From Nonomuraea sp. H19 (GTDB lineage: Bacteria; Actinomycetota; Actinomycetes; Streptosporangiales; Streptosporangiaceae), in NCBI RefSeq assembly GCF_052068215.1, contig NZ_JBQHCV010000011.1, positions 242,003 to 274,002 on the forward strand: DNA of 32,000 bases, in the 5' to 3' direction. Position numbers and translations under genes: made by a program. Positions 832-16,508 of this stretch are shown piece after piece; within the stretch, counting starts at the first letter, position 1; each line of letters opens with the position of its first letter. The notes beneath the pieces are model-generated. The model ran no database searches, was not told where the DNA came from, and saw only the letters and a program-made list of their open reading frames with translations.

Positions 832-939
832 TTTTGCCGCATTAGTGGGTCTTCCCAGGCTCTCTCGCGCGGGTTACCTTCCGTTCGGCGAGGCTCGGGG
901 GAATTGCCCGCCTTCCTGTCTCACAGGGGGAAGTCCCGT

Positions 940-2421
940 ATGCGCAGAACCATCATCGTCCTGATCACCGCACTCTCCTTACCGCTCGCCATGGCCGTCC
1001 CGGCCCACGCCGGCGGCCTGGCCGACCTGTTCGCCAAGCTGCTGGTCAAGCAGGTCAAGGGCACGAACGTCAACAAGCACCTGCAAGCCCTGCAGGCCAT
1101 CGGCACCGTCAACGGCGGCAACCGGGCGGCCGGCACGGCTGGTTACGACGCCTCCCGCGACTACGTGGCGAACAAGCTGCGCAAGGCCGGCTACAAGGTC
1201 ACGCTGAATCCGATCAACTTCGTCGAGGGCTGGACGGAGAACGCGCCGCCCGTACTCGGCTCGTACGTGCCGAACCAGGACTTCTTCACCTTCCAGCCCT
1301 CCCCGGCGGGCGACGTGACCGCGCAGGTCCAGGGCGTGGACCTCACGCTGCCGCCCACCCCGGCGCCGACCTCGACCAGCGGCTGCGAGCAGTCCGACTT
1401 CGCCGGGTTCGTGGCCGGCCGCATCGCGCTCATCCAGCGCGGCACCTGTGCGTTCGCCCTGAAGATCCGCAACGCGGGCCGCGCCGGCGCCTCCGGGATC
1501 ATCGTGTTCAACGAAGGCCAGGAGGGACGCACCGAGGCGTACCCACTGGACATCGGTGAGTGGCGGGCGGGGGTGCCCATGGTCTTCGCCGACTTCGCGG
1601 TCGGCAACGCGCTGGCGAGCACGCCGGGCGCGACGATACGGCTCAAGGTCGACGCCACGCTCGTGCTCGGCACCGATGAGAACGTGATCGCCGAGTCCCG
1701 CTTCGGCGACCCCCGCAACGTCGTGATGGCCGGGGCCCACCTCGACAGCGTGCTCGAAGGGCCCGGCATCAACGACAACGGCTCCGGCACCGCGGCGATC
1801 CTGGAGGTCGCCGAGGAGATGGCGAACTACCCGGTCAAGAACAAGGTCCGCTTCGCCTTCTGGGCCGCCGAGGAGATCGGCCTGCTCGGCTCCGACCAGT
1901 ACGTCGAGTCGCTGTCCGAAGAGCAGCGGGACCGGATCCGGGTCTACCTGAACTTCGACATGGTCGCCTCGCCGAACTACGCGTACAAGCTCTACGACGG
2001 GGACAACTCCGACAACGCCGGAGCCCCGGCCGGTCCGCCCGGTTCGGCGGAGATCGAGAAGCAGTTGGAGGCCTTCTACGGGTCCCGCGACCTGCCTACG
2101 GTCGGGACCGACTTCGACGGCCGTTCCGACTACGGGCCGTTCATCGCGGTCGGGATCCCGGCGGGCGGCGTCTTCACGGGCGCGGAAGGCATCAAGACGG
2201 CCGAGGAGGCGGCGCTGTTCGGAGGGACGGCGGGGGTCGCGTACGACGTCTGCTATCACCAGGCGTGCGACACGATCACCAACGTGAACGCGACGGCGCT
2301 GGACGTGAACTCGGACGCGATCGCCGACTCCGTCGCCCGGTACGCCTTCAGCCTCCGCTCCATCCCACCGCGGGCACCGTCATCGAGGGTCGCTGCTTTG
2401 ACAGCGGAAAGCGTCGGCTGA
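940..2421 (+). CDS. Secreted M28-family aminopeptidase with PA (protease-associated) domain
   Basis: Signal peptide MRRTIIVLITALSLPLAMAVPAHA. PA-like segment GRIALIQRGTCAFALKIRNAGRAGASGIIVFNEG. M28 metal-site blocks [30 protein letters not shown] and FAFWAAEEIGLLGS. GGGGGAAG lies 6 nt before ATG 940; the tracked TTG 904 is probably too early. Confidence 0.9.
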   Translation: MRRTIIVLITALSLPLAMAVPAHAGGLADLFAKLLVKQVKGTNVNKHLQALQAIGTVNGGNRAAGTAGYDASRDYVANKLRKAGYKVTLNPINFVEGWTENAPPVLGSYVPNQDFFTFQPSPAGDVTAQVQGVDLTLPPTPAPTSTSGCEQSDFAGFVAGRIALIQRGTCAFALKIRNAGRAGASGIIVFNEGQEGRTEAYPLDIGEWRAGVPMVFADFAVGNALASTPGATIRLKVDATLVLGTDENVIAESRFGDPRNVVMAGAHLDSVLEGPGINDNGSGTAAILEVAEEMANYPVKNKVRFAFWAAEEIGLLGSDQYVESLSEEQRDRIRVYLNFDMVASPNYAYKLYDGDNSDNAGAPAGPPGSAEIEKQLEAFYGSRDLPTVGTDFDGRSDYGPFIAVGIPAGGVFTGAEGIKTAEEAALFGGTAGVAYDVCYHQACDTITNVNATALDVNSDAIADSVARYAFSLRSIPPRAPSSRVAALTAESVG

Positions 2422-2427
2422 CCCGAC

Positions 2428-2459
2428 CGGCCGGGCAGACCCATGCGCCTGCCCGGCCG
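2428..2459 (+). terminator. Candidate GC-rich hairpin terminator after the first aminopeptidase gene
   Basis: cggccgggcag (2428-2438) pairs perfectly with ctgcccggccg (2449-2459), with a 10-nt loop. It starts 7 nt after the stop codon. There is no U-tract. Confidence 0.4.
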
Positions 2460-2496
2460 ACCTGCCCGGCCGACCTGCCCGGCCGACCTGCCCGGG
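2448..2496. repeat. 13-bp tandem repeat cctgcccggccga, about 3.7 copies
   Basis: Perfect units at 2448-2460, 2461-2473 and 2474-2486, plus a partial unit at 2487-2496. An inverted partial copy lies at 2428-2438. Confidence 0.9.
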
Positions 2497-2546
2497 CGTC
2501 TGATGCGCCCGGCAGGAACGGTCTGCTCGGCCCGGCCCGCGAACGG

Positions 2547-4148
<1,602 letters not shown>

Positions 4149-5975: not shown

Positions 5976-6353
5976 GTGGCCATCGTCATGAACCATCTGA
6001 TCGTCCCCGCCGCCGACCGGAACGAGGCGGCCGGGTTCTTCGCGGACCTGCTGGGGCTGCGGGTCGGCACGCCGGCGGGACCGTTCGCGCCGGTCCGCGT
6101 CAACGACGACCTCACGCTCGACTTCGACGACCGGCACAACCCCCAGCCCGGCCACTACGCCTTCCTGGTCGACGACGCCACCTTTGACGCGGTCATGGAG
6201 CGCCTCGGCCGCAGCCCGTCCATCGACTACGGCTCCGGGCCCATGAACGGCTGGGACCGGGAGATCAACCGTCTCGGGGGCGGCCGCGGCGTGTACGTAC
6301 GCGACCCGAACGGCCACAGCTACGAGCTCTTCACCGCAGTCCCGCCCATGTGA
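5976..6353 (+). CDS. VOC (glyoxalase/bleomycin-resistance/dioxygenase) family protein
   Basis: MNHLIVPAADRNEAAGFFADLLGL ... GHYAFLVDD ... RGVYVRDPNGHSYELF. AAAGGAG lies 6 nt before GTG 5976; ATG 5988 is an alternative start. Confidence 0.85.
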   Translation: MAIVMNHLIVPAADRNEAAGFFADLLGLRVGTPAGPFAPVRVNDDLTLDFDDRHNPQPGHYAFLVDDATFDAVMERLGRSPSIDYGSGPMNGWDREINRLGGGRGVYVRDPNGHSYELFTAVPPM

Positions 6354-6473
6354 CCGGCCGCCCGAAAATTTCTCGAATTCGATTGAACCCGGCGGCGGCG
6401 AGCGGCGTACAACCTGGCGGAAAACGGCGCTCGCCGATGGCCGGAAGCATGGTTCACCTGGGCGAACATCGGC

Positions 6474-7283
6474 GTGCCCACCCTGCGCGACTCACCCGGC
6501 ACGGGGATGGCGATGGAATTTCAGGGATGGACCGGCGGCCTGGCCTTACAGCCGCGCGATTACCTGGGGAGAGGCCGGCCACTGGCCGACGTCGTCAGGA
6601 CGGCCGGACCGGTCAGGGGAGAGGCGCTCTACCTGCTGACGCTCGGCAGCGCGGCCACCATGGCCAGGCTGCACCTGGGCGGGATCGCGGGACTGCGGCT
6701 CAGCCCGGGCAACGTCATGATCGGGGCGCACGGGCAGGTGTTCTTCGCCCCAGGGCCGCGTGACAGCGAGTTCCCCTCGCGCGACGTGCGTGACTGGGCC
6801 GACGTGATCATGTTCGCGGCGACCGGGCGGCAGGCGGGGGAGGGCGAAGAGCCCGATCTCGACAGGCTGCTGCCCGCGTTGCGCGCGGTGATCGACGAGT
6901 GCCGGCAGCCCGATCCGGAGTGCCGCCCGACGGCCGTCGAGCTGGTGAGCATCCTGCTCGGCCGCTCCGAGCCGCCCCCCCGCGCCACGGTGGAGGAACT
7001 GCTGCGGGAGGCCGAGAACCGGACCAGGCCGTACGAACCCGCGCCCTACGAGGACGTGCTCGTGTCCACGCCGGTCTGGCGCGAACCGGCGTACCTGGCC
7101 GGTGTCGCGATCGGCGTGCTCATCGTCGCGTTCGCGGCGAGCGTCGTCATCGCGATCTCCAGCGGGGCGGTGCAGGCTTCGTCCGCCGACGCCTTCGAGG
7201 GGAGCGCCGTCACCTCGTACGAGATGAAGCCGACGGTTGGGAACGCTCCAGAACCCATCGAGGGAGAGGTCCGGAATGGCTGA
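6474..7283 (+). CDS. Truncated pseudokinase (kinase C-lobe-like, catalytic residues lost) with one TM helix; candidate EssB/YukC-like component
   Basis: LHLGGIAGLRLSPGNVMIGAHGQVFFAPG replaces the HRD...N...DFG region. Other kinase-like blocks are DVRDWADVIMFAATGRQ and PDPECRPTAVELVSIL. TM helix AYLAGVAIGVLIVAFAASVVIAISSGAV. The start is uncertain (GTG 6474, ATG 6507 or ATG 6513). Confidence 0.6.
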   Translation: MPTLRDSPGTGMAMEFQGWTGGLALQPRDYLGRGRPLADVVRTAGPVRGEALYLLTLGSAATMARLHLGGIAGLRLSPGNVMIGAHGQVFFAPGPRDSEFPSRDVRDWADVIMFAATGRQAGEGEEPDLDRLLPALRAVIDECRQPDPECRPTAVELVSILLGRSEPPPRATVEELLREAENRTRPYEPAPYEDVLVSTPVWREPAYLAGVAIGVLIVAFAASVVIAISSGAVQASSADAFEGSAVTSYEMKPTVGNAPEPIEGEVRNG

Positions 7284-7563
7284 GGAATTCACCGCCGACC
7301 GGCAGGAGGCGGCGAGCGTCTCGCGGGACCTCAAGTCCATTCGCGCGGCCCTGGACGGAGGCAAGATCGGCGCGCTCGACGCGCGGACCGGCTCGGCGAA
7401 GGTCGACGACGCGCTGCGGACGTTCTTCGAGGAGTCCTCGGACAACCGCGAGCGGATGAACCAGCTACTCGAGCGGGCGGCCGGGCTGCTCGACGCCCTC
7501 GTCGAGGGCACCGGGCAGCTCGACGGCTCGCTGGCGGACTCGCTGTCGACGAGGAGCGCGTGA
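7276..7563 (+). CDS. Small (95 aa) predicted all-helical protein; possible WXG100-like partner or targeting factor
   Basis: ATG 7276 follows GGAGAGG and overlaps the upstream stop (ATGGCTGA). The sequence has a heptad-like helical character (LKSIRAALDGG ... MNQLLERAAGLLDALVEG) and no WXG motif. Confidence 0.6.
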   Translation: MAEEFTADRQEAASVSRDLKSIRAALDGGKIGALDARTGSAKVDDALRTFFEESSDNRERMNQLLERAAGLLDALVEGTGQLDGSLADSLSTRSA

Positions 7564-7709
7564 TGAAGGCGCTCGGACTCGGCGTCCTCACCGGCATCCT
7601 GCTCGGGACGATCGTGGTGTCGCTGGTGTTCGCGCTGACGGACCGGAACGTGCCGGCGAACGCTCGATCATCCCAGCCCGCGTACATGGAGGAGCTCTCC
7701 GATGGCTGA
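7563..7709 (+). CDS. 48-aa single-pass membrane peptide (not in ORF track); EssA-sized candidate component
   Basis: Hand translation gives MKALGLGVLTGILLGTIVVSLVFALTDRNVPANARSSQPAYMEELSDG. Its ATG overlaps the upstream TGA (GTGATGA), and its stop overlaps the next ATG (ATGGCTGA). Confidence 0.5.
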   Translation: MKALGLGVLTGILLGTIVVSLVFALTDRNVPANARSSQPAYMEELSDG

Positions 7710-8298
7710 TCTTCCCTTCGGGTTCACGGTACGGGTGCCCGAATCCTGGTACGAGTTCGACGTGTGGCGGGCCGGCCACAGCGGTGACCTGGCGCGCCTG
7801 GTGGACGCCCGGGTGGCGGCCAACCCGGAGCTGGCGCCCCACCGGTCGCTGCTGGTGAAGGTGCTGCGCGAGGTCGCCGACCTGGCGGGCCGGCGCGGCG
7901 CGGTTTTCGGCGCGGCGATGACCGACCACGCGGAGGACGTCGGCACCGTCCTCGCCACCCTCATGGTCCTGCACACCGGGGGATCGCCGGACCCGGAAGG
8001 CAACGCCGTCGAGGCCATCGCCTCGGGCATCATCGCGATCCCGCCCAGGCACGACACACCCGCCTGGCGCGACGTCGAGATCGTGGAGATCGACGCGGGC
8101 CGCGCCGTACGAGTCACCGGCGTCGAGTCCGGCGAGATCGAAGCGGTGACCATGCAGACCCTCATTCCCGTACCCGGCGGGCACGGCGTGCTGGACCTGG
8201 TGCTGACCAGCCCGCACCTGAGCCTGACCGAGCCCATGCTCGATCTGTTCGACGCGATCAGCGCCACCCTGGCCTGGTCCGACCCCCAAGGAGAGTGA
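7702..8298 (+). CDS. Hypothetical 198-aa soluble protein; possible secretion adaptor or chaperone
   Basis: Translationally coupled on both sides. Begins FGFTVRVPESWYEFD and ends with a beta-rich segment (VTMQTLIPVPGGHGVLDLVLTSPHLS...LFDAISATLAW). No family assigned with confidence. Confidence 0.65.
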   Translation: MADLPFGFTVRVPESWYEFDVWRAGHSGDLARLVDARVAANPELAPHRSLLVKVLREVADLAGRRGAVFGAAMTDHAEDVGTVLATLMVLHTGGSPDPEGNAVEAIASGIIAIPPRHDTPAWRDVEIVEIDAGRAVRVTGVESGEIEAVTMQTLIPVPGGHGVLDLVLTSPHLSLTEPMLDLFDAISATLAWSDPQGE

Positions 8299-8304
8299 AC
8301 CGTC

Positions 8305-8607
8305 ATGGCAGGTGGGACCCATCACCTCAGCTTCCCCCAGGTGGAGAACAGCGCCACCCGGCTGAACAAGGAGAAGGAGGACATCGAGAGCCGTCTGACC
8401 CAGCTCAAGTCGATGATCGACCAGCTCGTCAGCAGCGACTTCGTCACCGAGCGCGCCTCGGGCAAGTTCCAGCAGGACTACGACCAGTGGAACAACGGCG
8501 CCAGGCAGGTCATGCAGGGCCTGGAGGGCATGAGCCAGTTCCTCAAGACCGCCATCGCCAAGCACCGCGAGCTGGACGCCTCGCTCAGCGGCGGCGCGGG
8601 AGCGTGA
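8305..8607 (+). CDS. WXG100-family (EsxA-like) small secreted protein
   Basis: 100 aa with a helix-turn-helix pattern and a central FQQDYDQWNNGARQVMQGLEGMSQFL block (W-x-x-G variant of WXG). GGAGAG lies 9 nt before the ATG. Sits immediately upstream of the Rhs toxin. Confidence 0.85.
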   Translation: MAGGTHHLSFPQVENSATRLNKEKEDIESRLTQLKSMIDQLVSSDFVTERASGKFQQDYDQWNNGARQVMQGLEGMSQFLKTAIAKHRELDASLSGGAGA

Positions 8608-8611
8608 CGTC

Positions 8612-11600
8612 ATGCCGGGCGGATGGGAGGTGCTCGGGCTGCCCGGCGACCCCGCGCCCGGGAACCCGGGCGAGGTTCGGGGACTCGCCGGCCGGCTGCT
8701 CAAGGAAGCGCAGCTCGCCGAGGACAACACGGCCAAGTTGACGGCGGTGGCGGGTGGCAGCTCGGCGTTGCGGATGCGCGGGGATTACGCGGCGCGGTAC
8801 GCCGAGGCGCTGGGCGAGCTGCCCGGCGAGCTGACCAAGCTGGGCAAGGCGTACCGGGGCGCCGGGAACGCGCTGATGGCCTATGCCGGTTCGCTGGAGC
8901 AGGCCAAGACCCAGGCCGGTACGGCGCTGCGCCAGGGCCAGACGGCCGACGTCCAGTACCGGGGCGCGTTACGGGAGGTACAGGCGCAGCTGCCGGGCGC
9001 GGGCGCGGTGGGGAGCCTGGCGGAGGCGGAGTCGGCGGTCGGCGCGGCGGATCCGGCGGTGCAGGCGGCGGTGCGGCCGGCGGTGCAGCGGGCCCGCGCC
9101 GCCGACGCCGACCGGGCGCGGGCGCGGCGGATCGCCGATGAGGCGGCCCAGTTGCGCGGTGATGCCGAGAGCCGGGCGGTGCGGGAGATCGATCAGGCGC
9201 TGGCGGGCAGCGGCATCAAGAACAAGTCGTTCCTGCAGAAGGCGTGGGACGTGATCTCGACGCCGTTCCGGTCGTGGGATGACTTCGTGTCGTTCGCGGG
9301 CAAGGTGGCGCTGGTGGCCGGGCTGGTGGTGCTGGTGATCGGCACCGGCGGGCTGGCCGGGGTGGTGCTGGCCGGGGTCGCGGTGGCGGCCGGGGCGGTG
9401 GTGCTGGCCGACGCGCTCAACAAGTACCGCCAGGGCAGGGGCTCCTTGGGGCAGGTGGCGCTGGCCGCGGTCGGGGTGATCCCGGGCGGCAAGAGCATCG
9501 GCCTGCTGGCCCAGGGGGCCAAGGCCGTGACCGGGCTGCGCGGCGCCGCCGCGGCCGTCCGCGGCGGCGGAGGCACGCTGCTGGGACTCGGCGCGGCGGG
9601 GATCCGCGGCGGCCGGGCCGCCCTGGGAGCCGGGGCGACGTCGATCCGCTCGGCGATCCAGGCGGGCGGGTCGCGGGCCGGTGCGACGGCGACCGCGGCC
9701 TGGCAGCGCGGCCGGCAGTTCTTCAGCAAGGACCCGGTGCACTTCCCCACCGGTATCGTGCTGCTCCCGCAGACGGACGTGGACCTGCCGGGGGCACTGC
9801 CGCTGCGGCTGGAGCGCACACATCTGTCCAGCTACCGTACGGGGCGCTGGTTCGGCCGATCCTGGGCCTCGACCCTGGACCAACGCGTGGAGGCGGACGC
9901 CGAAGGCGTGTGCCTGGCCACCGCCGGCGGCGCCGTACTCGCCTTCCCGCATCCCGAGCCCGGCCAGGCCGTCCACCCCGACGACGGTCCCCGCCTGGCA
10001 TTGCGCGCGGAAGGGACCGGCTACACGGTCACCGACCCGCACACCGGCCACACCACCCACTTCGCACCATTACCGCAAGAGGATTCGAAGGTGCTGCCGA
10101 TCGCGGCGATCACCGACCGCAACGGCGACCGCGTCGACTTCCACTACACCGACGGCCTGCTCACCGAGGTGACCCACTCCGGCGGCTACCACCTGGACAT
10201 CGAGACCGCGCACGGCCGCATCGTGGAGATCCGCCTGCGCGGCGCCGGCCAGAGCCTCGTCTCCTACGCCTACGACGAGGCCGGCGACCTGACCGAGGTG
10301 ACCAACTCTTCTGGCCTGCCGCTGCGTTTCACCTACGACGACGACGGCCGGATGACCCGCTGGCACGACCGCATCGGCACCTGGTACGCCTACACCTACG
10401 ACGGGGAAGGCCGCTGCGTTTACGGCACCGGCAAGGACGGCATCTTCAACACGGAGATCAGCTACGGGGACGGCGTCACCCGCGCGTACGACTCACTGGG
10501 CCACGCCACCACGTACCACTACAACGACCTCCTTCAGGTAGTCGCCGAGACCAACCCCCTCGGCCACGTAACCCGCTACCACTGGGACCACTACGACCGC
10601 TTGCTGTCGCAGACCGACCCGCTGGGCCGCACCGTGCGGTATACCTACGACGAGTTCGGCATGCCGCTTTCGATCAGCCGCCCGGACGGTGCCACTCGTC
10701 GCCACACCTACAACGACCTGCACCTGCCGGTCACTATCACCGACTACGACGGCAGCGTCCACGCGTTCGAATACGACGAGCGCGGCAACATCATCAGCGA
10801 CGGCGACAGCCGCTTCACCTACAACCAGCACGGACACCTGGCCGCGATCACCAACGCCCTGGGCCACACCTGCAGCGTGCGAACGGATGCTGCCGGGCTG
10901 CCGGTGGAGGTCACCGATGCGCTGGGCGGGACGACCCGCTATGAGCGCGATGCTTTTGGGCGAGCCACCGCCATCACCGACGCCCTCGGCAACACCACCC
11001 GCTACACCTGGACAGTGGAGGGCAAGCCGGCCAGTCGCACGCTACCTAGCGGCGTGACCGAACGCTGGCGGTATGACGGGGAGAACAACCTCATCGAACA
11101 CGTCGACGCGCTCGGCCGGGCGACCCACACCGAAGTCGGCTCCTTCGACGTGGCCACCGCACTGACCACCGCGGGCGGTGCCCGTCTGGAGCTCGCCTAC
11201 GACACCGAGTTGCGCCTCGCCCAGGTCACCAACCCCCAGGGGCTGACCTGGCACTACACCTACGACGCGGAAGGCGACCTGATCCGGGAGACCGACTTCA
11301 ACCACCGTACGCTGACCTACGTCCGGGACGCGGCCGGCAGGTTGATCGAACGCGTCAACGGGGCCGGAGAGTCCACCAGCTACACCCACGACGTTCTGGG
11401 CCAGGTCATCGAGCAGCGCTCGGAGGACCGCGTCACCACGTTCGCCTACGATGCGCTCGGCCGCCTGACCTGGGCGGTGAACCCGGATGCCGACCTGCGC
11501 ATCAGTCGAGACGCTCACGGCAGGATCACCGCCGAAACCTGCAACGGGCGCACGCTCACCTCGGCCTACGACGCACTCGGCCGACGCGTACACCGCCGCA

Positions 11601-13036
11601 CCCCCTCAGGAGCGGAAGCGGTTTGGGATTACAACCCGCGCAACCAGCCCAAGATGCTGCAGACAGCCGGCCAGACGGTCGCTTTCGCCTATGATCCAGC
11701 GGGCCACGAAATTGGTCGAAATTTCGGCACAAACGTCTCGCTGATTCATGACTGGGACCCCGACTCCCGCCTCCGCGCCCAGACCCTCCGCACCGGAAAT
11801 CGGCTCATCCAGCGGCGCACCTACGACTATCGCCCAGACGGCCATCTCATTCAGATCGACGACCTGCTGTCCGGCCGCCGCCACTACGACCTGGATCCGG
11901 TCGGCCGCGTTACCGGTGTCCAGGGCGCGAACTGGTCGGAGCGCTACACCTACAACGCCGCCGGCCAGATCACCGACGCCACATGGCCGGCGTCGTCGGA
12001 CGCCCGCGGCCCTCGCGCCTACACGGGGACAATGATCCGCCAGGCGGGCCGTACGCGATATGAGTACGACCGTCAGGGCCGGGTGACCCTCCGCCAGCAG
12101 AAGGGCCTGTCATCGAGACCCAGGACATGGCGCTACACGTGGGACGCCGACGACCGCCTGACAGGCGTCACCACGCCGGATGGCGCGACCTGGCGCTACT
12201 TGTACGACCCCCTCGGCCGCCGCGTAGCGAAAGAACGGGTGAACGGTTCCGAGCGTACGGATTTCGTCTGGGACGGCCTCACCCTGGCCGAGCAGACCAC
12301 CGAGGACCGCACGACGGTATGGGACTGGATCCCCGGCACCTTCCACCCTCTCTCCCAGACAGAGCGCCGAGCCGATTCCCAGGAGTGGATCGATGAGCAG
12401 TTCTACGCCATCGCCACTGACTTGATCGGCACCCCTGCCGAACTCGTGGATCCAGACGGCAACCTGGCCTGGCGCACGAGGCAGGACTTGTGGGGAGCCT
12501 CGACCGACCTTGTCTCGACCGGAGCCGACTGTCCCTTGCGGTTCCCTGGCCAGTACGCGGACGAGGAGTCCGGTCTTCAGTACAACTACTTCCGTCACTA
12601 CGACCCGGCCAGCGCTCATTACCTGGCAAGCGACCCCATCGGCCTCTCCGGTGGCTGGAACCCGCACGCCTACGTGGACAACCCGAAGTCATGGTGCGAC
12701 CCGCTGGGGCTGAGCCCGTACGGGACCTCGATCTGGAGTTCGACGAGCAGCAGGACGTCGGTCGAGAACGCGTATGGTCACTGGCGCAGCCACGGGCGGG
12801 AATTCCCGCACCTGAACAACGCGAAGGAATATGTGGAGGAAGCGACGGGCTTCCTGACCGGCGGCCATCCGGGCACGCTCACCAGGCACCGGCCGAACGG
12901 CGACGTCGTTCGCTACAATCCGCAGACCGATCAGTTCGGCGTGCGGAACGCGCAGGGCGTTCCGCGAACATATTTCATACCGGACCCGCAGGTCCACGGA
13001 TATCCGACCAATCTGGACTACTTCAATGCCCAATAA
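8612..13036 (+). CDS. Rhs/YD-repeat polymorphic toxin with N-terminal helical secretion-signal-like domain and a TM block
   Basis: N-terminus: WEVLGLPGDPAPGNPGEVRGLA...YAGSLEQAKTQAGTAL. Hydrophobic block: VALVAGLVVLVIGTGGLAGVVLAGVAVAAGAVVLA. DUF6531-like block: DPVHFPTGIVLLPQTDVDLPGALPLRLERTHLSSY..FGRSW. Dozens of YD repeats (YTYDxxGR). Rhs core end: RFPGQYADEESGLQYNYFRHYDP...NPKSWCDPLGL. Confidence 0.95.
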   Translation: MPGGWEVLGLPGDPAPGNPGEVRGLAGRLLKEAQLAEDNTAKLTAVAGGSSALRMRGDYAARYAEALGELPGELTKLGKAYRGAGNALMAYAGSLEQAKTQAGTALRQGQTADVQYRGALREVQAQLPGAGAVGSLAEAESAVGAADPAVQAAVRPAVQRARAADADRARARRIADEAAQLRGDAESRAVREIDQALAGSGIKNKSFLQKAWDVISTPFRSWDDFVSFAGKVALVAGLVVLVIGTGGLAGVVLAGVAVAAGAVVLADALNKYRQGRGSLGQVALAAVGVIPGGKSIGLLAQGAKAVTGLRGAAAAVRGGGGTLLGLGAAGIRGGRAALGAGATSIRSAIQAGGSRAGATATAAWQRGRQFFSKDPVHFPTGIVLLPQTDVDLPGALPLRLERTHLSSYRTGRWFGRSWASTLDQRVEADAEGVCLATAGGAVLAFPHPEPGQAVHPDDGPRLALRAEGTGYTVTDPHTGHTTHFAPLPQEDSKVLPIAAITDRNGDRVDFHYTDGLLTEVTHSGGYHLDIETAHGRIVEIRLRGAGQSLVSYAYDEAGDLTEVTNSSGLPLRFTYDDDGRMTRWHDRIGTWYAYTYDGEGRCVYGTGKDGIFNTEISYGDGVTRAYDSLGHATTYHYNDLLQVVAETNPLGHVTRYHWDHYDRLLSQTDPLGRTVRYTYDEFGMPLSISRPDGATRRHTYNDLHLPVTITDYDGSVHAFEYDERGNIISDGDSRFTYNQHGHLAAITNALGHTCSVRTDAAGLPVEVTDALGGTTRYERDAFGRATAITDALGNTTRYTWTVEGKPASRTLPSGVTERWRYDGENNLIEHVDALGRATHTEVGSFDVATALTTAGGARLELAYDTELRLAQVTNPQGLTWHYTYDAEGDLIRETDFNHRTLTYVRDAAGRLIERVNGAGESTSYTHDVLGQVIEQRSEDRVTTFAYDALGRLTWAVNPDADLRISRDAHGRITAETCNGRTLTSAYDALGRRVHRRTPSGAEAVWDYNPRNQPKMLQTAGQTVAFAYDPAGHEIGRNFGTNVSLIHDWDPDSRLRAQTLRTGNRLIQRRTYDYRPDGHLIQIDDLLSGRRHYDLDPVGRVTGVQGANWSERYTYNAAGQITDATWPASSDARGPRAYTGTMIRQAGRTRYEYDRQGRVTLRQQKGLSSRPRTWRYTWDADDRLTGVTTPDGATWRYLYDPLGRRVAKERVNGSERTDFVWDGLTLAEQTTEDRTTVWDWIPGTFHPLSQTERRADSQEWIDEQFYAIATDLIGTPAELVDPDGNLAWRTRQDLWGASTDLVSTGADCPLRFPGQYADEESGLQYNYFRHYDPASAHYLASDPIGLSGGWNPHAYVDNPKSWCDPLGLSPYGTSIWSSTSSRTSVENAYGHWRSHGREFPHLNNAKEYVEEATGFLTGGHPGTLTRHRPNGDVVRYNPQTDQFGVRNAQGVPRTYFIPDPQVHGYPTNLDYFNAQ
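12713..13036 (+). other. C-terminal variable toxin domain (107 aa) of the Rhs protein, family unassigned
   Basis: Starts right after the DPLGL cleavage motif (12698-12712). Sequence: SPYGTSIWSS...VENAYGHWRSHGREFPHLNNAKEYVEEATGF...VVRYNPQTDQFGVRNAQGVPRTYFIPD. GC is visibly lower than in the YD-repeat body. Confidence 0.65.
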
Positions 13037-13292
13037 TGGCAATCTGTACTGTCGAGTCTGCGGACTGCTTCAGAAGGGCCCGCCGTGGGGCGAGGACGGA
13101 AGAACGCCTTCGTGGGACATCTGCGCCTGCTGTGGAATTGAATTCGGCTATCAAGATGCCACGCCGGCGGGTGTCCTCCGAGCCAGGAACGCGTGGATCG
13201 CCAAAGGATGCCCTTGGTTTGACGAGCCGAAGCGACCTCCGGGTTGGCACATGGAAGAGCAGCTCGCGCACGCTCAAGACGTGGACGCGTGA
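13026..13292 (+). CDS. Small Cys-rich (CxxC...CxxC) protein; candidate cognate immunity protein
   Basis: The ATG lies 11 nt inside the toxin gene end. 88 aa, containing YCRVCG...ICACCGIEFGY. It is in the classic immunity position directly after an Rhs C-terminal domain and in the same lower-GC patch. No clear SD. Confidence 0.55.
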   Translation: MPNNGNLYCRVCGLLQKGPPWGEDGRTPSWDICACCGIEFGYQDATPAGVLRARNAWIAKGCPWFDEPKRPPGWHMEEQLAHAQDVDA

Positions 13293-13478
13293 GGGGCGCC
13301 TCGACCCGCCGGTCCAGAATGAGCCTGTCCGACCCCGTCCGGTGCGCCGCCGCTGAGGTCGAGACCCGGTGGTCTCAGGGCCTGATGGCCAGATCAGTAA
13401 TGGCCGTCGCTTTCGTGCTCGACGTTTGTGAACTTGCCGGTTCGCAGGGCCTCTCTGGCCGAGGCCATCCGGGTGTGG

Positions 13479-14384
13479 TCACGAGGACAGCGCGTCGCGG
13501 ATGACGGTGATCAACGTCTGCTGCAAAGGGGACAGGCGCTTGTCTGTGCGCCAGACGACGAAGACCGGCAGGCGCGGCTGGGTGCCGGCGATCCGGATCT
13601 CGTGAAGCGCGCCTGTGGCCAGTTCTGCGGCCACCGAGGCGCGAAAGAGCAGCGCGACGCCGAGCCCGGCGCGGACGGCGTGTTTGATCGCCTCGGGGTG
13701 GCCGAACTCGATGACCACCTCGCGGTCGGTGACGCCGAGTTCGGCGAGCGCTGTGTCCTCCAGGTCGCGCCGGATGGAGGAGCGCGGCGTGGCGACGAAG
13801 GGCAGCCGGGCCAGTTCCTCCACCGAGATGCTGTCGTTCACCGTGCCGGGCGCGCCGGCGAGCACGAGATCCTGGTGACCGGCGAACTGCCCGGTGAGGC
13901 CGCGGCTGTGGGGAATCCGCGGGGCGATCGGGACGGCCAGGTCGCACAACCCGGAGGTGACGGCCTCCCAGATCTGGTTCGGGTCGAACACGTGCGCCGC
14001 GATCCGCGCGCCCGGATGGGCCAGGGCGAAGTCGGTGAGGACGGGCGGCAGCAAGTAGCTGCCCACGGTCATGCTGGTGGCCACGGCCACGGCCCCCGCG
14101 GTGCCGCCGGCGAGGCCGGCCAGCTCGCGATCGAGCTCGTTGCCGCGGCGCAGTGTGTCGCGGGACCACCGGTAAGCGATGTGGCCCGCGTCGGTGAGCT
14201 CCAGGCGCTGGCCCACGCGGTGGAACAGCTCGACGCCCAGCCGTTCCTCAAGCGAACGGATGTGGCCGCTTACGACGGGCTGCGAGACATACAGGTGGGC
14301 GGCGGCGCGGCCCACGCCTCCCTGCTCCACGACAGCGCAGAAGACCTCGAGCTTGTGCAGGGAGATGCGGTTGTCTATAGCCAT
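13479..14384 (-). CDS. LysR-family transcriptional regulator
   Basis: N-terminal HTH LHKLEVFCAVVEQGGVGRAAAHLYVSQPVVSGHIRSLEERLGVELFHR followed by a substrate-binding domain. Start is ATG at 14384; the longer tracked ORF extension is rejected. Confidence 0.9.
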   Translation of the reverse strand: MAIDNRISLHKLEVFCAVVEQGGVGRAAAHLYVSQPVVSGHIRSLEERLGVELFHRVGQRLELTDAGHIAYRWSRDTLRRGNELDRELAGLAGGTAGAVAVATSMTVGSYLLPPVLTDFALAHPGARIAAHVFDPNQIWEAVTSGLCDLAVPIAPRIPHSRGLTGQFAGHQDLVLAGAPGTVNDSISVEELARLPFVATPRSSIRRDLEDTALAELGVTDREVVIEFGHPEAIKHAVRAGLGVALLFRASVAAELATGALHEIRIAGTQPRLPVFVVWRTDKRLSPLQQTLITVIRDALSS

Positions 14385-14495
14385 ATGACTATGAGTATCG
14401 CAAGATATTCGTCTTTGCCCCCTGTTGTAGGTGGTCCTAGCCTGATCCAGGCATCCATTCCCGCATATGGGTCGCCTGCGGAAAGGACCTTCCCG

Positions 14496-15293
14496 ATGAC
14501 CACGTTCACCTACCACGGGGCAGACGGCCACCCGTTGCACGCCACCACGATCGGCGCCGACGGACCGCCCCTCGTCCTGCTGCACGGTGGCGGCCCCGAT
14601 CATCACAGCCTGCTGCCGCTGGCCCGCCGCCTCGCCGACCTGCACACCGTGATCCTCCCCGACGTACGAGGCTACGGCCGGTCGGTCTGCGCCGATCCCG
14701 CCCGGCACACCTGGGACCAGTACACCTGCGACGTGCTCGCCCTGCAGGATCACCTGGGCATCCGGAGCGCCGTGCTGGGCGGCACGGGCCTGGGCGCTAC
14801 CGTGACCCTGCGTACCGCGCTCGCCCACCCGGACCGCGTCCGCGCCGCCATCCTGATCGGCGTTGAGGACATCGAGGACGACCAGGACAAGGAGGCCGAG
14901 ACCGCGTTCCTCGACGCGTTCGCCGCCCGAGTGCTCGCCGACGGCGTCGAGGCGGCCTGGGCGCCGATCCTGGAACGGTTCCCGCCGGTCATCGGCGCCA
15001 TGGTGCGCGACGCGATCCCGCGCTCGGATCCGGCCAGCATCGCCGCGGCGGCGGCCATCGGCCGCGACCGGGCCTTCCGGGGCCTCGACGAACTCGCCGC
15101 GATCAGCTCGCCGACTCTGGTCATCCCAGGAACCGATCCGCGCCATCCGAGGGAGCTCGGCGAGCAGGTCGCCGGGGTGCTGCGCAGGGGCCGCCTCGCG
15201 CCGGTCGCCGTCTCGGCCGACCTGCACACCGCCGACGACCTCGCGGCGGCGATCGTCCCGGCGATCCGCGCCTTCCTCAGCGACCCTCGCTGA
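14496..15293 (+). CDS. Alpha/beta-hydrolase fold protein (non-canonical nucleophile elbow)
   Basis: PPLVLLHGGGPDHHSLLPLARRLADLHTVILPDVRGYGRS ... AVLGGTGLGATV ... PTLVIPG. GGAAAGGA lies 7 nt before ATG 14496. Divergent from the LysR gene. Confidence 0.85.
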   Translation: MTTFTYHGADGHPLHATTIGADGPPLVLLHGGGPDHHSLLPLARRLADLHTVILPDVRGYGRSVCADPARHTWDQYTCDVLALQDHLGIRSAVLGGTGLGATVTLRTALAHPDRVRAAILIGVEDIEDDQDKEAETAFLDAFAARVLADGVEAAWAPILERFPPVIGAMVRDAIPRSDPASIAAAAAIGRDRAFRGLDELAAISSPTLVIPGTDPRHPRELGEQVAGVLRRGRLAPVAVSADLHTADDLAAAIVPAIRAFLSDPR

Positions 15294-15295
15294 CC

Positions 15296-15760
15296 ATGGA
15301 GAACGGCACGCTGCTGGTCCGCGATGGACACCTCTACACCGCCGACGAGAGCGCGCGCACCCACCGGGCGGGTTCGGTGCTGGCCGTGAACGGGCGGATC
15401 GTCGCGGTGGGCGAGACACCGACGGTGGACCTGGCCGCCGCCGCGCTGAGCCGGCGAGAGCGCGCCAGTCTGCGCACGATCGACGCGAGCGGGATGCTGA
15501 TCCTGCCCGGCTTCGTCAACGCGCACTGGCACGAGGTGCTCGCCAGGGGCCTGTCCCAGTTCGGGCCGCAGGATTACCTGCCCGGCCGGCCCGGCACCGC
15601 GTCCGGGGTGACACTCGGGCTCGCTGTGAGCGTCGGCGGGCTCAGCGCCCCCGCACTGGGCGCGGCGGCCGAGGCGTACGGACCTCAGGGCGTCTTCACC
15701 ATATTGTGTCTGGTCCCGGTGGCCGCCGTCATGCTGGGCCTCTTCCTCCCCCGCGAATGA
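15296..15760 (+). pseudogene. Chimeric relic: amidohydrolase N-terminus fused in frame to an MFS-transporter-like C-terminal tail
   Basis: Residues 1-~85 are VNGRIVAVGE...IDASGMLILPGFVNAHWHEV, an amidohydrolase start with the HxH metal motif. The remaining ~300 residues of such enzymes are absent. The tail GVTLGLAVSVGGLSAPALGAAAEAYGPQGVFTILCLVPVAAVMLGLFLPRE looks like the last TM helices of a transporter. Confidence 0.55.
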
Positions 15761-15914
15761 CGGCACAAGCGGACGATGCCCCCAGGTCCGGGCATCCGCG
15801 AAGGTCGGCGCGGGCGCCGGCTGGGGGAGACCAATCGTGATCAAACAGCCAGGCCGGCAAACGTCCAGCTCAGCAGGTTACTGCGGAAGAGCTACACCCA
15901 TCGCGTTCCGCTTC

Positions 15915-16508
15915 TCAGTTGCGGACCAGCGGCGCGGCGAACCACTGCTGGAGCAGGCTGCCACCCTTGCAACTGCCGACGCCCACCTCGGCGTTGCCCC
16001 GCACGTTGGGCTGAGCGCTGGTCAGGCACTTCTTGGTGGCGAAGTTCTGCATCCTGAAGGCGTCCTTGAAAGGTGCGGGCGCGTCGTTCGCCAGCTTGAA
16101 CGCCCACTTCTGGGTCTGCTTGCCACCCACGCACCGGGCGACGAACAGCCGACCTGCGCTGTCGGCCTCCAGACACACGGTCTGCCCGCGCACGAGCTTC
16201 CTGCTGACCAGCTTGCCGCCGTTGATGAAGTTCCACTGCTGCTCGACGTCGTTGCCGCCGCGGGCGAACCTGCTGAAGACCTGGCCCTTGCCGCTTGCGC
16301 CGACGTCGCCGACCTCCAATGTCAGGTTGGTCTTGCGGTTGCTGATGTTCAGGGTGCCGGCCGGCGGTGCGGCGGCCACCGACGCGGCGTCGGCGGAGGC
16401 GGCCATGGGGGCGGCGGCAGCCGCGGCGACCAGGGCCGCGCTCATGGCGCCGAGCGCCGCGCCACGCCGGAGGGTACGGGCGGCGCCAAATGACAGGGCA
16501 TGCTTCAT
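15915..16508 (-). CDS. Secreted ricin-type beta-trefoil lectin domain protein
   Basis: Signal peptide with RR (ARTLRRGAALGAMSAALVAAAAAAPMAASA). Three QxW-type repeats (EQQWNF, TQKWAF, LQQWFA) and paired Cys. AAGGAGAAAGACC precedes the ATG. Confidence 0.85.
   Translation of the reverse strand: MKHALSFGAARTLRRGAALGAMSAALVAAAAAAPMAASADAASVAAAPPAGTLNISNRKTNLTLEVGDVGASGKGQVFSRFARGGNDVEQQWNFINGGKLVSRKLVRGQTVCLEADSAGRLFVARCVGGKQTQKWAFKLANDAPAPFKDAFRMQNFATKKCLTSAQPNVRGNAEVGVGSCKGGSLLQQWFAAPLVRN

Follow-up and report, generated by a model that had tools for sequence, protein, structure and literature searches.

A conserved hydrophobic hairpin and a chaperone-like fold at a putative type VII-linked Rhs toxin locus of Nonomuraea sp. 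H19

Why should an Rhs toxin carry membrane-type helices between a helical N-terminus of T7SS type and its cage, and do these helices tether the cage or serve entry into a target cell? The question is raised by the open reading frame at 8612–13036 of the window, i.e. the whole stretch of 32,000 nucleotides that was analysed (positions refer to its forward strand unless stated otherwise). It extends from ATG to TAA, encodes 1474 aa (WP_441123065.1 of the soil actinomycete Nonomuraea sp. H19) and is a genuine Rhs toxin gene, with a GC3 of 0.87 in a surrounding window of about 70% GC. All peptide strings quoted in a preliminary description were found in the translation, and profile searches, hydropathy and translation recovered every segment listed there. 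The order is WXG-type signal domain, hydrophobic hairpin, Gly/Ala linker, DUF6531 plug, YD shell, Rhs core and toxin tip.

The cage is well defined by family profiles. The DUF6531 plug (9731–9946, aa 374–445; PF20148, E 1.4e-19) starts with DPVHFPTGI, the motif across the toxin family being DP[IV]D..[ST]G. It is followed by the YD-repeat shell (9947–12490, aa 446–1293), in which RHS_repeat matches 13 stretches (PF05593, E 4.9e-87) and the NCBIfam models TIGR01643 (E 2e-77) and, partially, NF041261 RHS_core are found. The Pfam RHS family matches aa 1269–1297 (E 4.1e-9), and the Rhs-associated core occupies 12491–12712 (aa 1294–1367; TIGR03696, E 2.9e-20). Two Asp motifs, DPIGL at aa 1341 (12632–12646) and DPLGL at aa 1363 (12698–12712), preceded by P-x4-D, mark the end of the core as a predicted autoproteolysis site, and a motif pair of this type with a spacing of 22 residues is present in 17 of 20 Rhs-length representatives. 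Plug, shell and DPLGL core end had been described correctly from the sequence.

Directly after DPLGL the identity to Rhs orthologues falls from 58–96% to below 25%, and GC3 drops to 0.80 in the tip and to 0.66 in the following small gene. The variable tip (12713–13036, aa 1368–1474, 107 aa) is homologous to the CdiA toxin tip 8EY4_A (E 1.1e-25, 55% identity). The profile of its family matches colicin D tRNase domains marginally (E 0.018–0.04), with the catalytic-His motif KHAGDFG of colicin D aligned to rHGaDFG of the tip family; Pfam Colicin_D gave no match. From these alignments the tip is probably a colicin D-like RNase. The 88-aa immunity candidate (13026–13292) overlaps the Rhs stop by 11 nt and contains a Zn-ribbon-like CxxC...CxxC arrangement, with no transmembrane segment, signal or Pfam family found. 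A homologue of 77% identity follows the same tip type in N. fuscirosea (L012). The automatic gene caller missed the 88-aa reading frame in the identical locus L008. Sister toxins carry cytoplasm-acting domains, and taken together the tip, its relatives and the soluble immunity protein point to a cytoplasmic target.

The N-terminal domain (8612–9256, aa 1–215) is predicted to be elongated, helical and T7SS_signal-like. AF2 places helices at aa 19–48, 60–126 and 148–199, with pLDDT values of 84–98 for most of aa 1–200 and 73 for aa 51–60. M55-R-G57 lies at the first helix–helix turn and represents the family motif [W/M]-x-G, in which G57 is invariant. T7SS_signal (PF21725), for which the cut-off is 27 bits, scored 17.4 bits with the whole protein and 23.3 bits with aa 1–210; the matched part of the profile is positions 71–235 of 241. 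Of 11 close homologues, 10 match this family, which is itself just a "putative" signal. Foldseek searches with the N-terminal model returned generic long-helix matches only (best E 0.12, PPE4 E 0.5), and hhalign found no relation between this domain and the WXG100 protein. The proposed helical N-terminus of T7SS type holds up, with a family match that stays sub-threshold in the Rhs protein itself. A Sec or Tat signal had been named as contrary evidence; by Kyte–Doolittle analysis no hydrophobic segment precedes aa 223, and therefore no signal of either type is present.

Gene context provides further indications of the export route. As noted beforehand, a WXG100 gene (8305–8607, 100 aa; PF06013, E 4.7e-13; TIGR03930, E 3e-11) directly precedes the Rhs gene with a gap of 4 nt, and its product shows at least 90% identity across about 20 Nonomuraea entries. 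An all-helical 95-aa protein (7276–7563) has homologues at the same position in 8 of 8 loci compared, including L013, the locus of the sole Rhs found to lack the hairpin. One member of its family matches EspC (PF10824) below threshold (E 2.2e-4), and a PDB profile search with the 95-aa protein gave nothing significant; it is a candidate co-secretion or targeting partner of Lap/EspC type. On the reverse strand, 16772–20974 encodes an FHA-containing, EssC/EccC-like FtsK/SpoIIIE ATPase of 1400 aa with a transmembrane hairpin at aa 224–263 (PF01580, E 3.8e-45; FHA, E 5.5e-11), the presumed secretion motor. Matches to TIGR03928 EssC (E 9e-94) and to EccCa/b (E 5.5e-87 and 9.2e-71) all lie below the equivalog cut-offs. 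Of the 9 distinct hairpin-bearing Rhs loci that were examined, 8 have an ATPase of this type (L014 and L015 being the exception), and L013 has one as well.

Could this neighbourhood be coincidental, with the Rhs protein released by lysis or another route? The sub-threshold T7SS_signal score would fit, as would the fact that profile searches recognised no other canonical T7SS membrane component (EccB/D/E, EssA/B, EsaA) in the window. Against it stand the missing Sec or Tat signal and the fact that four genera of actinobacteria, as well as metagenome contigs, show the same succession of WXG100 and Rhs close to an FHA-EssC ATPase. The shared order of a ~95-aa helical protein, a ~200-aa protein, WXG100, Rhs and immunity gene, with the ATPase nearby, was found in Nonomuraea, Geodermatophilus, Actinoplanes, Frankia and a metagenome contig; the cassette, including the PsbP/Mog1-fold protein discussed below, is conserved in several actinobacterial genera. 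Moreover, Rhs toxins have been described before as genetically linked to several T7SS subtypes (PMC10327511, PMC11217815). We regard a non-substrate as very improbable. In the best explanation, an actinobacterial type VII-like locus comprising FHA-EssC-type ATPase, WXG100, ~95-aa partner and small membrane proteins would have the Rhs protein as its signature substrate.

The hydrophobic block itself (9275–9430, aa 222–273) is defined by hydropathy, AF2 and conservation. Its 19-residue Kyte–Doolittle mean peaks at 2.53 over aa 223–270, and a second, weaker hydrophobic segment follows at aa 282–300 (mean 1.70). The uncharged core of 35 residues (aa 232–266, 9305–9409) contains a central GTGG turn and is flanked by the conserved W222 and Y272. 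In the AF2 model the block is a hairpin of two short helices, 222–243 and 248–273, and not clearly two full membrane spans. Of the membrane-spanning helices postulated earlier, the hydrophobic block is real, but two complete spans are not clearly evident. In the members examined of a toxin family of 659 representative clusters the hairpin comprises about 31–36 uncharged residues (median run 31 aa) around a GGP or GTGG turn.

The arrangement of signal, helices and cage had been called unusual, which could not be maintained: the hairpin is present in 60 of the 62 family members examined, among them 19 of 20 of Rhs length, and it is common to short toxins without an Rhs cage. In these deaminase-, zeta-toxin- or REase-tipped proteins the N-terminal 300 aa including the hairpin are 47–74% identical. 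Judged from these comparisons, signal and hairpin form a conserved unit that is also used by cage-less toxins, and the cage is therefore an optional insert between this module and the toxin.

Behind the hairpin lies a Gly/Ala-rich linker (9437–9727, aa 276–372), as described before, with 25% Gly and 24% Ala. The weakly hydrophobic segment at aa 282–300 is conserved, carries GxIPGGK and precedes the Gly/Ala stretch, and AF2 gives pLDDT values below 50 over aa 293–360, i.e. predicted disorder. In a rival reading the hairpin, after export, stays in the membrane of the producer itself or re-inserts there. The linker would span the cell wall like a stalk, and the cage would be presented at the surface of the hyphae and delivered on contact, like CdiA or wall-bound WapA. 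A low-complexity, predicted disordered linker of about 100 residues, its length held at about 60–110 aa between hairpin and plug in the family, is consistent with such a stalk; Lys/Arg residues after the second helix (KYRQGR) fit cytoplasm-facing flanks, and the aromatics W222 and Y272 would put both hairpin ends at one interface. A two-helix hairpin, however, has its two ends on one side of the membrane, so that an exported signal domain would require insertion from outside and a retained one would keep the cage inside. Furthermore, the short sister toxins carry the module yet have no cage to show, one Rhs of the family manages without the hairpin, and the crossing of the target membrane by a cytoplasm-acting toxin is left unexplained. 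Display on the producer appears unlikely to us, although it deserves serious consideration.

In another reading the Gly/Ala-rich hairpin is a second weapon, pore-forming or depolarising, beside the C-terminal toxin, comparable to TspA and EsxX, T7SSb toxins with glycine-zipper C-termini. The block contains many small-xxx-small spacings, and membrane-depolarising glycine-zipper T7SS toxins are described in PMC12744356. The sole immunity candidate beside the Rhs gene is the soluble Zn-ribbon protein and no membrane-embedded one was found there. In addition, the same hairpin occurs in many toxins, each with a tip-specific immunity gene; a toxic hairpin would leave siblings unprotected. This makes a second weapon quite improbable.

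A clue to the handling of the hairpin comes from the gene at 7702–8298, located two genes upstream of the Rhs gene; the preliminary description had noted neither this conserved gene nor the immunity gene nor what the toxin tip is. It encodes a cytosolic, PsbP/Mog1-like protein of 198 aa, for which hydropathy and sequence gave no transmembrane segment or signal peptide (AF2 mean pLDDT 91, pTM 0.87). Foldseek against the PDB found 3LYD (E 1.6e-6), MTC28, PsbP and Tsi3, as well as SciW bound to the Rhs1 TMD (6XRR/9MVG) with a probability of 1.0, E ~1e-3 and modest TM-scores of 0.35–0.48. Actinobacteria commonly have PsbP/Mog1-fold proteins that serve other roles, e.g. MTC28. SciW is an Eag chaperone of the Gram-negative T6SS, and Eag (DUF1795) proteins shield the N-terminal TMDs of prePAAR Rhs effectors; the 198-aa protein is alike in predicted fold, but searches of Pfam, DUF1795 included, and of the PDB gave no sequence match. 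An HMM of its family gave a match immediately ahead of each hairpin-bearing Rhs that was examined; the gene adjoins, or sits one gene (WXG100) upstream of, 9 of 9 distinct hairpin-bearing Rhs genes. At L013, which keeps WXG100 and the 95-aa partner, the family HMM did not find it; this sole negative control consists of one metagenomic contig, on which the upstream flank is limited to 8 kb. By analogy to Eag proteins and from the fold prediction, we propose the 198-aa protein as chaperone of the hydrophobic hairpin.

Alternatively, the block could lie outside any membrane and serve as a buried core or for docking, packing on the signal domain, on the WXG100 and 95-aa partners or on the secretion machine, with the PsbP-like protein in an unrelated role in the apparatus. 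The arms of about 13–20 residues are short for full membrane spans, the link to DUF1795 is absent at sequence level, and the PsbP-like gene is still found in L003, which has no Rhs, as a core part of the apparatus would be; the genome of the L003 strain, however, contains a hairpin-bearing toxin at another place (P0004). The family-wide chargeless runs of 30–42 residues with Kyte–Doolittle means of 2.0–3.1, conserved at low sequence identity, are unlike soluble helical bundles, and a pLDDT of 57–80 in the block compared to about 73–98 in the bundle suggests that it is not packed into the latter. A non-membrane element is improbable in our view.

With moderate confidence we favour a T7SS-exported Rhs toxin with a chaperoned, membrane-inserting hairpin, a probable colicin D-like RNase tip and an 88-aa candidate immunity protein; export, cleavage, membrane insertion and chaperone binding are deduced from sequence and gene context. 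The helical domain, WXG100 and the 95-aa helical protein would form a composite signal that the EssC-like ATPase recognises, and the cytosolic PsbP/Mog1-like protein would shield the hairpin prior to export. Once exported, the hairpin may insert into a membrane, for which the target cell's is the likeliest candidate, and a role in entry would consist in helping the encaged, DPLGL-cleaved toxin to reach the cytoplasm. There the tip could act as a colicin D-like RNase, the producer being protected by the 88-aa Zn-ribbon protein.

The operon starting at 6513 is tightly packed. Its first gene (6513–7283, as called in L008) encodes a 256-aa protein, or 269 aa from an alternative GTG at 6474, with one C-terminal transmembrane helix by hydropathy (aa 191–223) and a weakly kinase-C-lobe-like region (kinase matches E 0.16–0.4); no Pfam family was found. 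Counterparts of 256–421 aa occupy the same position in L003–L008. A 48-aa reading frame (7563–7709) shows, from translation and hydropathy, one N-terminal transmembrane helix with a short polar tail behind it. Genes for 43–63 aa are called at this position in L003–L008, and judged by its published description the T7SSd protein TsdH (PMC11217815) is similar.

The open reading frame at 8612..13036 (+) encodes a protein of 1474 amino acids with the codon bias of a real gene (GC3 0.87, at a G+C content of ~70% in the window). By exact look-up the product was identified as WP_441123065.1 of Nonomuraea sp. H19, annotated as 'RHS repeat-associated core domain-containing protein' and a singleton at 90% identity. 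A start codon upstream of 8612 was rejected, as the stop-to-stop frame opens at 8534 and an extended protein would overlap the WXG100 gene ending at 8607. All peptide strings quoted in the preliminary description were found in the translation, and the Rhs architecture assigned there was recovered by profile searches. The DUF6531 plug (PF20148) covers aa 374-445 with E 1.4e-19, and the YD-repeat shell matches RHS_repeat (PF05593, E 4.9e-87) in 13 stretches as well as YD_repeat_2x (TIGR01643, E 2e-77). Towards the C-terminus the Pfam RHS match (aa 1269-1297) is followed by Rhs_assc_core (TIGR03696, aa 1294-1367, E 2.9e-20). The expected core end DPLGL is located at aa 1363 and is accompanied by DPIGL at aa 1341; these are the paired Asp motifs of the autoprotease, and autoproteolysis of H19 Rhs at DPLGL is predicted from them. 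At the other end of the cage, most family members start the plug with DPIDVATGE, compared to DPVHFPTGI in H19. The H19 plug is therefore devoid of Glu at +8, the position used in the N-terminal autocleavage of TseI (PMC8765631).

For the first ~200 residues a T7SS secretion signal domain had been proposed. In H19 Rhs itself the score for T7SS_signal (PF21725) stays below the cut-off of 27 bits, with 17.4 bits for the whole protein and 23.3 bits for aa 1-210, and the match spans profile positions 71-235 only. PF21725 is matched by 10 of 11 aligned homologues (best E 5.5e-8), and the Rhs relatives P0220 and P0302, which are similar to H19 aa 2-296 (E 3e-26 and 2e-17), give unmarked PF21725 matches. 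Hydropathy analysis revealed no hydrophobic segment near the N-terminus; a Sec or Tat signal is therefore ruled out. An AF2 model of the N-terminal module, computed from 43 aligned sequences, has long helices at 19-48, 60-126 and 148-199, with pLDDT mostly 84-98 over aa 1-200 and down to 73 at aa 51-60. The loop joining the first two of these helices harbors a [W/M]-x-G motif (M55-R-G57 in H19), in which G57 is invariant and residue 55 is mostly W (23 of the 43 sequences) or M (16 of 43). This would be the WXG position of T7SS substrates. By hhalign, no relation of the N-terminal domain to the WXG100 protein of the locus (probability 0.8%) or to the 95-aa helical family (0.2%) was detected. 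Foldseek comparison of the model with the PDB returned generic long helices of the BAR-domain type (best E 0.12) and ESX-3 PPE4 (E 0.5). LXG (PF04740) was found neither by Pfam in H19 Rhs nor as an LXG structure in the Foldseek comparison.

The hydrophobic block and the Gly/Ala-rich linker described behind this domain are both present. Hydropathy peaks at 2.53 over aa 223-270, with a weaker block at aa 282-300, and the linker (aa 276-372) consists of 25% Gly and 24% Ala. The AF2 model places two helices at 222-243 and 248-273 (pLDDT 57-80), followed by the linker with pLDDT <50. Among 62 members the longest uncharged run measures 31 residues in the median and contains a turn of GGP, SGP or GTGG at its centre. 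We regard the block as a hydrophobic helical hairpin whose arms span ~13-20 residues, with the conserved W222 and Y272 on either side. Since the Pfam model PF21725 ends before it, the hairpin lies outside the described domain. Pfam searches on aa 201-375 gave no match to LXG or any other family, nor to PT-TG (PF14449) at E<=10. PT-TG, which lies between trafficking domain and toxin in WXG/LXG toxins and bears a conserved small-residue 'TG' motif, has been proposed as a linker or envelope-interaction element (PMC13483458). The hairpin turn of H19, GTGG, resembles this motif, in contrast to the GGP or SGP of most family members.

Signal domain, hairpin and linker form a module that is shared between Rhs-caged and short toxins. 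In other Nonomuraea strains, homologues of aa 1-372 occur as proteins of 445-602 aa that include the hydrophobic block and have no Rhs cage. They are 47-68% identical to H19 over the alignment (41-74% in local BLAST) and end in divergent tips of the YwqJ-type deaminase, zeta-toxin or Tox-REase-2 type. Near homologues and more remote Rhs relatives match PF21725. For the 'WXG' N-terminal domains of actinobacterial polymorphic toxins (PMC3482391), Tox-REase-2, the tip of family member P0008, is listed with 'T7SS (WXG)' export in Actinobacteria. With aa 1-372 as query, a word-index search yielded no more than 12 proteins, none of them an Rhs orthologue, so that an exhaustive search was needed. With phmmer, aa 1-300 retrieved 659 clusters at E<=1e-3 from 1.84 billion representatives. 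Among the best 150 of these 659 clusters, 20 have a length of >=1300 aa. The hydrophobic block is found at ~aa 220-285 in 19 of these 20 Rhs-length members, and a plug start of the form DP[IV]D..[ST]G likewise in 19, ~60-110 residues past the block in members that have the two. A pair of DPxGx motifs at a distance of 22 residues (17/20) and a variable tail of 43-283 aa (18/20) complete the picture. In the one exception, P0230, the helical domain runs straight into the plug with no hydrophobic block. The arrangement of membrane-type helices between signal and cage, initially regarded as unusual, is thus actually the norm of the family; the observation as such was confirmed, and its interpretation is supported in part. 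H19 Rhs is an ordinary member of a large, experimentally unstudied family of T7SS-linked Rhs toxins. The 659 representative clusters provide many natural variants for tests, at least one of them hairpin-less.

A candidate partner of the hairpin is encoded two genes upstream of the toxin gene. The 198-aa protein (7702..8298, +) gave no sequence match in Pfam, NCBIfam or the PDB; at the family level, 0 of 40 members matched a relevant Pfam family, and a profile search of the PDB was equally negative. The family is widespread in Actinobacteria. AF2 modeling on a 40-sequence alignment yielded a confident structure (pLDDT 91, pTM 0.87), for which Foldseek returned from the PDB, in this order, 3LYD from Jonesia (E 1.6e-6), MTC28 (Rv0040c), the T6SS Eag chaperone SciW, PsbP and Tsi3. 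The SciW matches comprise the free and the Rhs1 TMD-bound forms (6XRR, 6XRB, 9MVG) with a probability of ~1.0, E 1e-3 to 7e-3 and TM-scores of 0.35-0.48. According to the model, the predicted fold is that of PsbP/Mog1. Neither a signal peptide nor a TM segment was detected in the protein.

Using a family HMM, we found a PsbP-like gene at each of the 9 distinct hairpin-bearing Rhs genes examined, either immediately upstream or with one gene in between. At the locus of the hairpin-less P0230 (L013, a single metagenome contig) the same HMM found no PsbP-like gene; the WXG100 protein, the ~95-aa helical protein and the FHA-ATPase are retained. In these loci the helical partner thus goes with the signal domain, and the PsbP-like protein with the hairpin. 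The L013 Rhs gene (8001-12416) is the only hairpin-less one found in the family, and a kinase-WD40 gene occupies the place of the PsbP-like gene. Beside the orphan short toxins of two comparison loci, L001 and L002, no adjacent PsbP-like copy was found. A further strain (L003) has no Rhs at this locus; it keeps the PsbP-like gene there and encodes a hairpin-bearing short toxin elsewhere. The lack in L001 and L002 and the retention in L003 fit a chaperone acting in trans. In the literature, export by the T6SS has been said to be diagnosed by the PsbP/MOG1 domain (PMC12419801).

Between 6513 and 13292, the genes, all on the plus strand, overlap or leave hardly any gap, as in one operon. The first gene (6513-7283) encodes a protein with one TM segment and a region that matches kinase C-lobes weakly; it belongs to no Pfam family and is not scored as Pkinase. 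It is followed by the 95-aa helical protein (7276..7563), for whose family Pfam and PDB searches gave one sub-threshold EspC match and EsxA/EsxB at E 0.36-0.7. The third gene (7563-7709) encodes 48 aa with a single TM helix and a short polar tail. The PsbP-like gene (7702-8298) and the WXG100 gene (8305..8607) come next. The latter had been noted directly before the Rhs gene, in agreement with a PF06013-type match (E 4.7e-13) and a gap of 4 nt. The Rhs toxin gene (8612-13036) and a gene for 88 aa (13026-13292) conclude the series. A scan of 6200-13600 for promoters and terminators revealed none above shuffled background. As side observations, the 48-aa reading frame is kept (43-63 aa) in all Nonomuraea loci, and the WXG100 proteins of these loci carry W-x-x-G (QWNNG, QWDTG), not W-x-G. 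Their C-termini share an H-x-x-L-D motif reminiscent of the HxxxD/E pattern in WXG100 C-terminal signals.

On the minus strand, 16772..20974 encodes an ATPase with FHA domain, TM hairpin and FtsK/SpoIIIE domains, whose best matches are EssC (E 9e-94) and EccCa/b. Its first ~80 residues, before the FHA domain (MIIRLTIRDP...ELDVEVTAEPETTIGSLL), resemble a small beta-grasp/YukD-like domain, and a pattern search returned only one strict Walker A motif, at aa 628. The Geodermatophilus locus and L013 have true Pkinase genes at their flanks, which suggests phospho-regulation of the FHA-ATPase. In some Nonomuraea the kinase-like protein that opens the operon has a length of 416-421 aa, and at L002 a 151-aa fragment homologue (7541-7996) stands directly before the orphan zeta-toxin paralogue.

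The gene order is kept in other Nonomuraea species. Over module and shell, most windows of 50 residues show 66-98% identity between these Rhs proteins and H19; right past DPLGL the value drops below 25%, leaving a polymorphic tip on a conserved scaffold. Outside the genus, the core cassette of ~95-aa helical protein, ~200-aa protein, WXG100 protein, hairpin-bearing Rhs and immunity gene, with an FHA-ATPase nearby, was also observed in Geodermatophilus, Actinoplanes, Frankia and one metagenome contig. Two of the comparison loci contain altered Rhs genes. At L004 (10303-13505) an in-frame deletion fuses MPGGWE... to the linker, with signal domain and hairpin gone; this degenerate Rhs ends just past DPLG without a toxin tip, and the locus is rearranged. 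The orthologous Frankia gene (L011, 10082-14921) is frameshifted within a proline-rich insert, which may reflect a pseudogene or a sequencing error; its downstream part carries an ADPRT (Tse2-like) tip.

The 107-aa tip of H19 Rhs belongs to no Pfam family, and Colicin_D was matched by 0 of 14 members of the tip family. The tip is 55% identical over 78 residues to PDB entry 8EY4, a CdiA 'PT-VENN domain-containing protein', and further homologues are located on filamentous-haemagglutinin-type, 'pyocin large subunit-like' and PT-HINT proteins. No activity of the 8EY4 toxin is documented in the literature searched, and neither for 8EY4 nor for PF21725 was a paper found there. Next, the tip-family profile matches the tRNase domain of colicin D in four sequences (E 0.018-0.23), with the whole domain covered. 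Hereby the KHAGDFG motif of colicin D, whose His is the catalytic one, aligns with the family motif rHGaDFG; the H19 sequence at this place is SHGREFP, and its His is residue 1394. Against the PDB, the family profile aligns end to end with the catalytic domain of colicin D (1TFO, 1V74) at E 0.018-0.04, including the motif K/R-H-G/A-x-D/E-F-G. The delivery scaffold of H19, T7SS-Rhs, is a different one, and the relation to colicin D is marginal (E 0.018). With moderate confidence, the tip is taken to be a putative colicin D-like RNase.

The 88-aa reading frame (13026..13292) overlaps the Rhs stop codon; its product has CxxC twice and lacks TM segments. In N. fuscirosea, an Rhs with the same tip is followed by a copy of 77% identity. 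The 88-aa protein is likely the immunity protein, and its soluble nature indicates a cytoplasmic target. H19 Rhs carries a variable C-terminal toxin with a cognate immunity candidate downstream. Along 8612-13292 the GC3 declines stepwise after the module, from 0.93 (signal domain) and 0.97 (hairpin and linker) through 0.86 (shell), 0.83 (core) and 0.80 (tip) to 0.66 (immunity gene), a course that would fit a recent acquisition of the tip-immunity cassette.

We propose that the toxin would be exported via the FHA-EssC system, using its helical domain together with the WXG100 protein and the 95-aa partner. The PsbP-like protein would shield the hairpin before export, and the hairpin would insert into a membrane thereafter. 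With C-terminal autoproteolysis at DPLGL, the RNase could then be delivered to the target cytoplasm, the compartment to which the soluble immunity candidate points. The main rival explanation leaves the cage at the producer: the hairpin would anchor it to the cell's own surface, and the Gly/Ala linker, disordered in the AF2 model, would serve as a stalk through the wall. Hairpin and candidate chaperone offer a concrete and easily tested hypothesis for the entry of T7SS toxins with cytoplasmic targets.

T7SS-linked Rhs toxins are already known. Published work has connected them genetically with the T7SS subtypes a to d (PMC10327511, PMC11217815), and RHS repeats are among the T7SS toxin architectures listed by Zhang et al. 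2012 (PMC3482391). After Listeria LrhA, the loci of T7SSc/d and the survey of 2012, H19 Rhs as such does not come as a surprise. A conserved hairpin in a T7SS delivery module with a PsbP/Mog1-fold companion is not described in the literature searched; this pairing, mirroring that of TMD and Eag in the T6SS, is the part worth pursuit.

The T6SS effectors concerned are of the prePAAR type, with Rhs proteins as class I and ~450-aa toxins as class II. In both classes, Eag chaperones bind the N-terminal TMDs, which are implicated in the passage through target membranes (PMC7773334). Class I systems such as RhsA/EagR1 and Rhs1/SciW (PMC7773334, PMC8765631, PMC12881460) share with H19 the series of delivery domain, TMD region, DUF6531-type plug, cage and toxin. 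A PsbP/Mog1-fold protein just upstream, with the fold predicted in H19, and parallel short toxins (~450-600 aa) with the same N-terminal module are also common to both. In contrast, the Gram-positive H19 shows no prePAAR, PAAR or T6SS (no PAAR family was matched by H19 Rhs in Pfam or NCBIfam), and its delivery domain is a helical bundle of putative WXG type. The hairpin lies past this domain, whereas the TMD of prePAAR effectors lies ahead of PAAR. With regard to the Eag side, DUF1795 was not found among 40 members of the 198-aa family, 0/40 of which match any relevant Pfam family; the place of the gene and its occurrence together with the hairpin agree with an Eag-like arrangement. By analogy, the T6SS parallel appears close. 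Two unrelated secretion systems would then have reached one solution for Rhs effectors.

Taken jointly, these findings could mean that Actinobacteria possess a T7SS counterpart of the prePAAR-TMD/Eag pair. A so far unrecognised family of cytosolic proteins with PsbP/Mog1 fold would chaperone the conserved hairpin in the N-terminal delivery module of Rhs-caged and short toxins, and this hairpin would be the long-sought means of carrying T7SS toxins across the target membrane. The cassette of helical partner, PsbP-like protein, WXG100 protein, Rhs, immunity gene and FHA-EssC ATPase would represent a distinct T7SS subtype with Rhs as its hallmark substrate. We put this joint reading forward tentatively, as possible and, in its entirety, somewhat improbable.

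Among the published subtypes, T7SSd of Actinomycetota (Olsenella uli; Garrett, Higginson and Palmer 2024, PMC11217815) is closest to the H19 locus. In both, the EssC-like ATPase bears an FHA domain, there is one WXG100 protein, and an Rhs toxin whose immunity protein is cytoplasmic adjoins the system. By their description, the membrane Ser/Thr kinase TsdD and the tiny single-TM protein TsdH can be likened to the kinase-like membrane protein and the 48-aa protein of H19. No TsdI-like large Ig-domain envelope protein is recognisable within the 32-kb window, though one could be encoded elsewhere in the genome, and the PsbP-like component of the H19 locus is missing from the published T7SSd list (PMC11217815).

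LrhA of Listeria monocytogenes (EssC8, LxpABC partners; PMC10327511) resembles H19 Rhs as a large Rhs protein with an unannotated helical N-terminus, DUF6531, repeats and variable tip. Both loci contain a WXG100 neighbour and other small proteins of helical type, together with an immunity gene and an EssC that bears FHA. It belongs to a T7SSb of the Bacillota, for which hairpin and PsbP/Mog1-like neighbour are not reported (PMC10327511), and no sequence relation between the N-terminal domains of LrhA and H19 was detected. The candidate immunity protein of LrhA is membrane-anchored with an extracellular domain, implying an envelope target, in contrast to the soluble cytosolic one of H19.

Between immunity gene and ATPase, H19 contains an inserted block (13479-16508) with a LysR regulator (-), an alpha/beta hydrolase (+), a 154-aa reading frame (+) and a ricin-type lectin (-), whereas in N. 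solani and N. basaltis the ATPase gene directly follows the immunity gene. Genes for an ECF sigma factor and an anti-sigma factor of the zf-HC2 type (21091-22340, +) adjoin the ATPase gene and are kept there in the other Nonomuraea loci; their products are possible regulators of the system. The flanks at 100-4064 and 28802-31942 are unrelated to the toxin and encode a protein with a LigD primase-polymerase domain, two peptidases of the M28 family and a large HTH/NB-ARC/TPR regulator, which is truncated by the end of the window.
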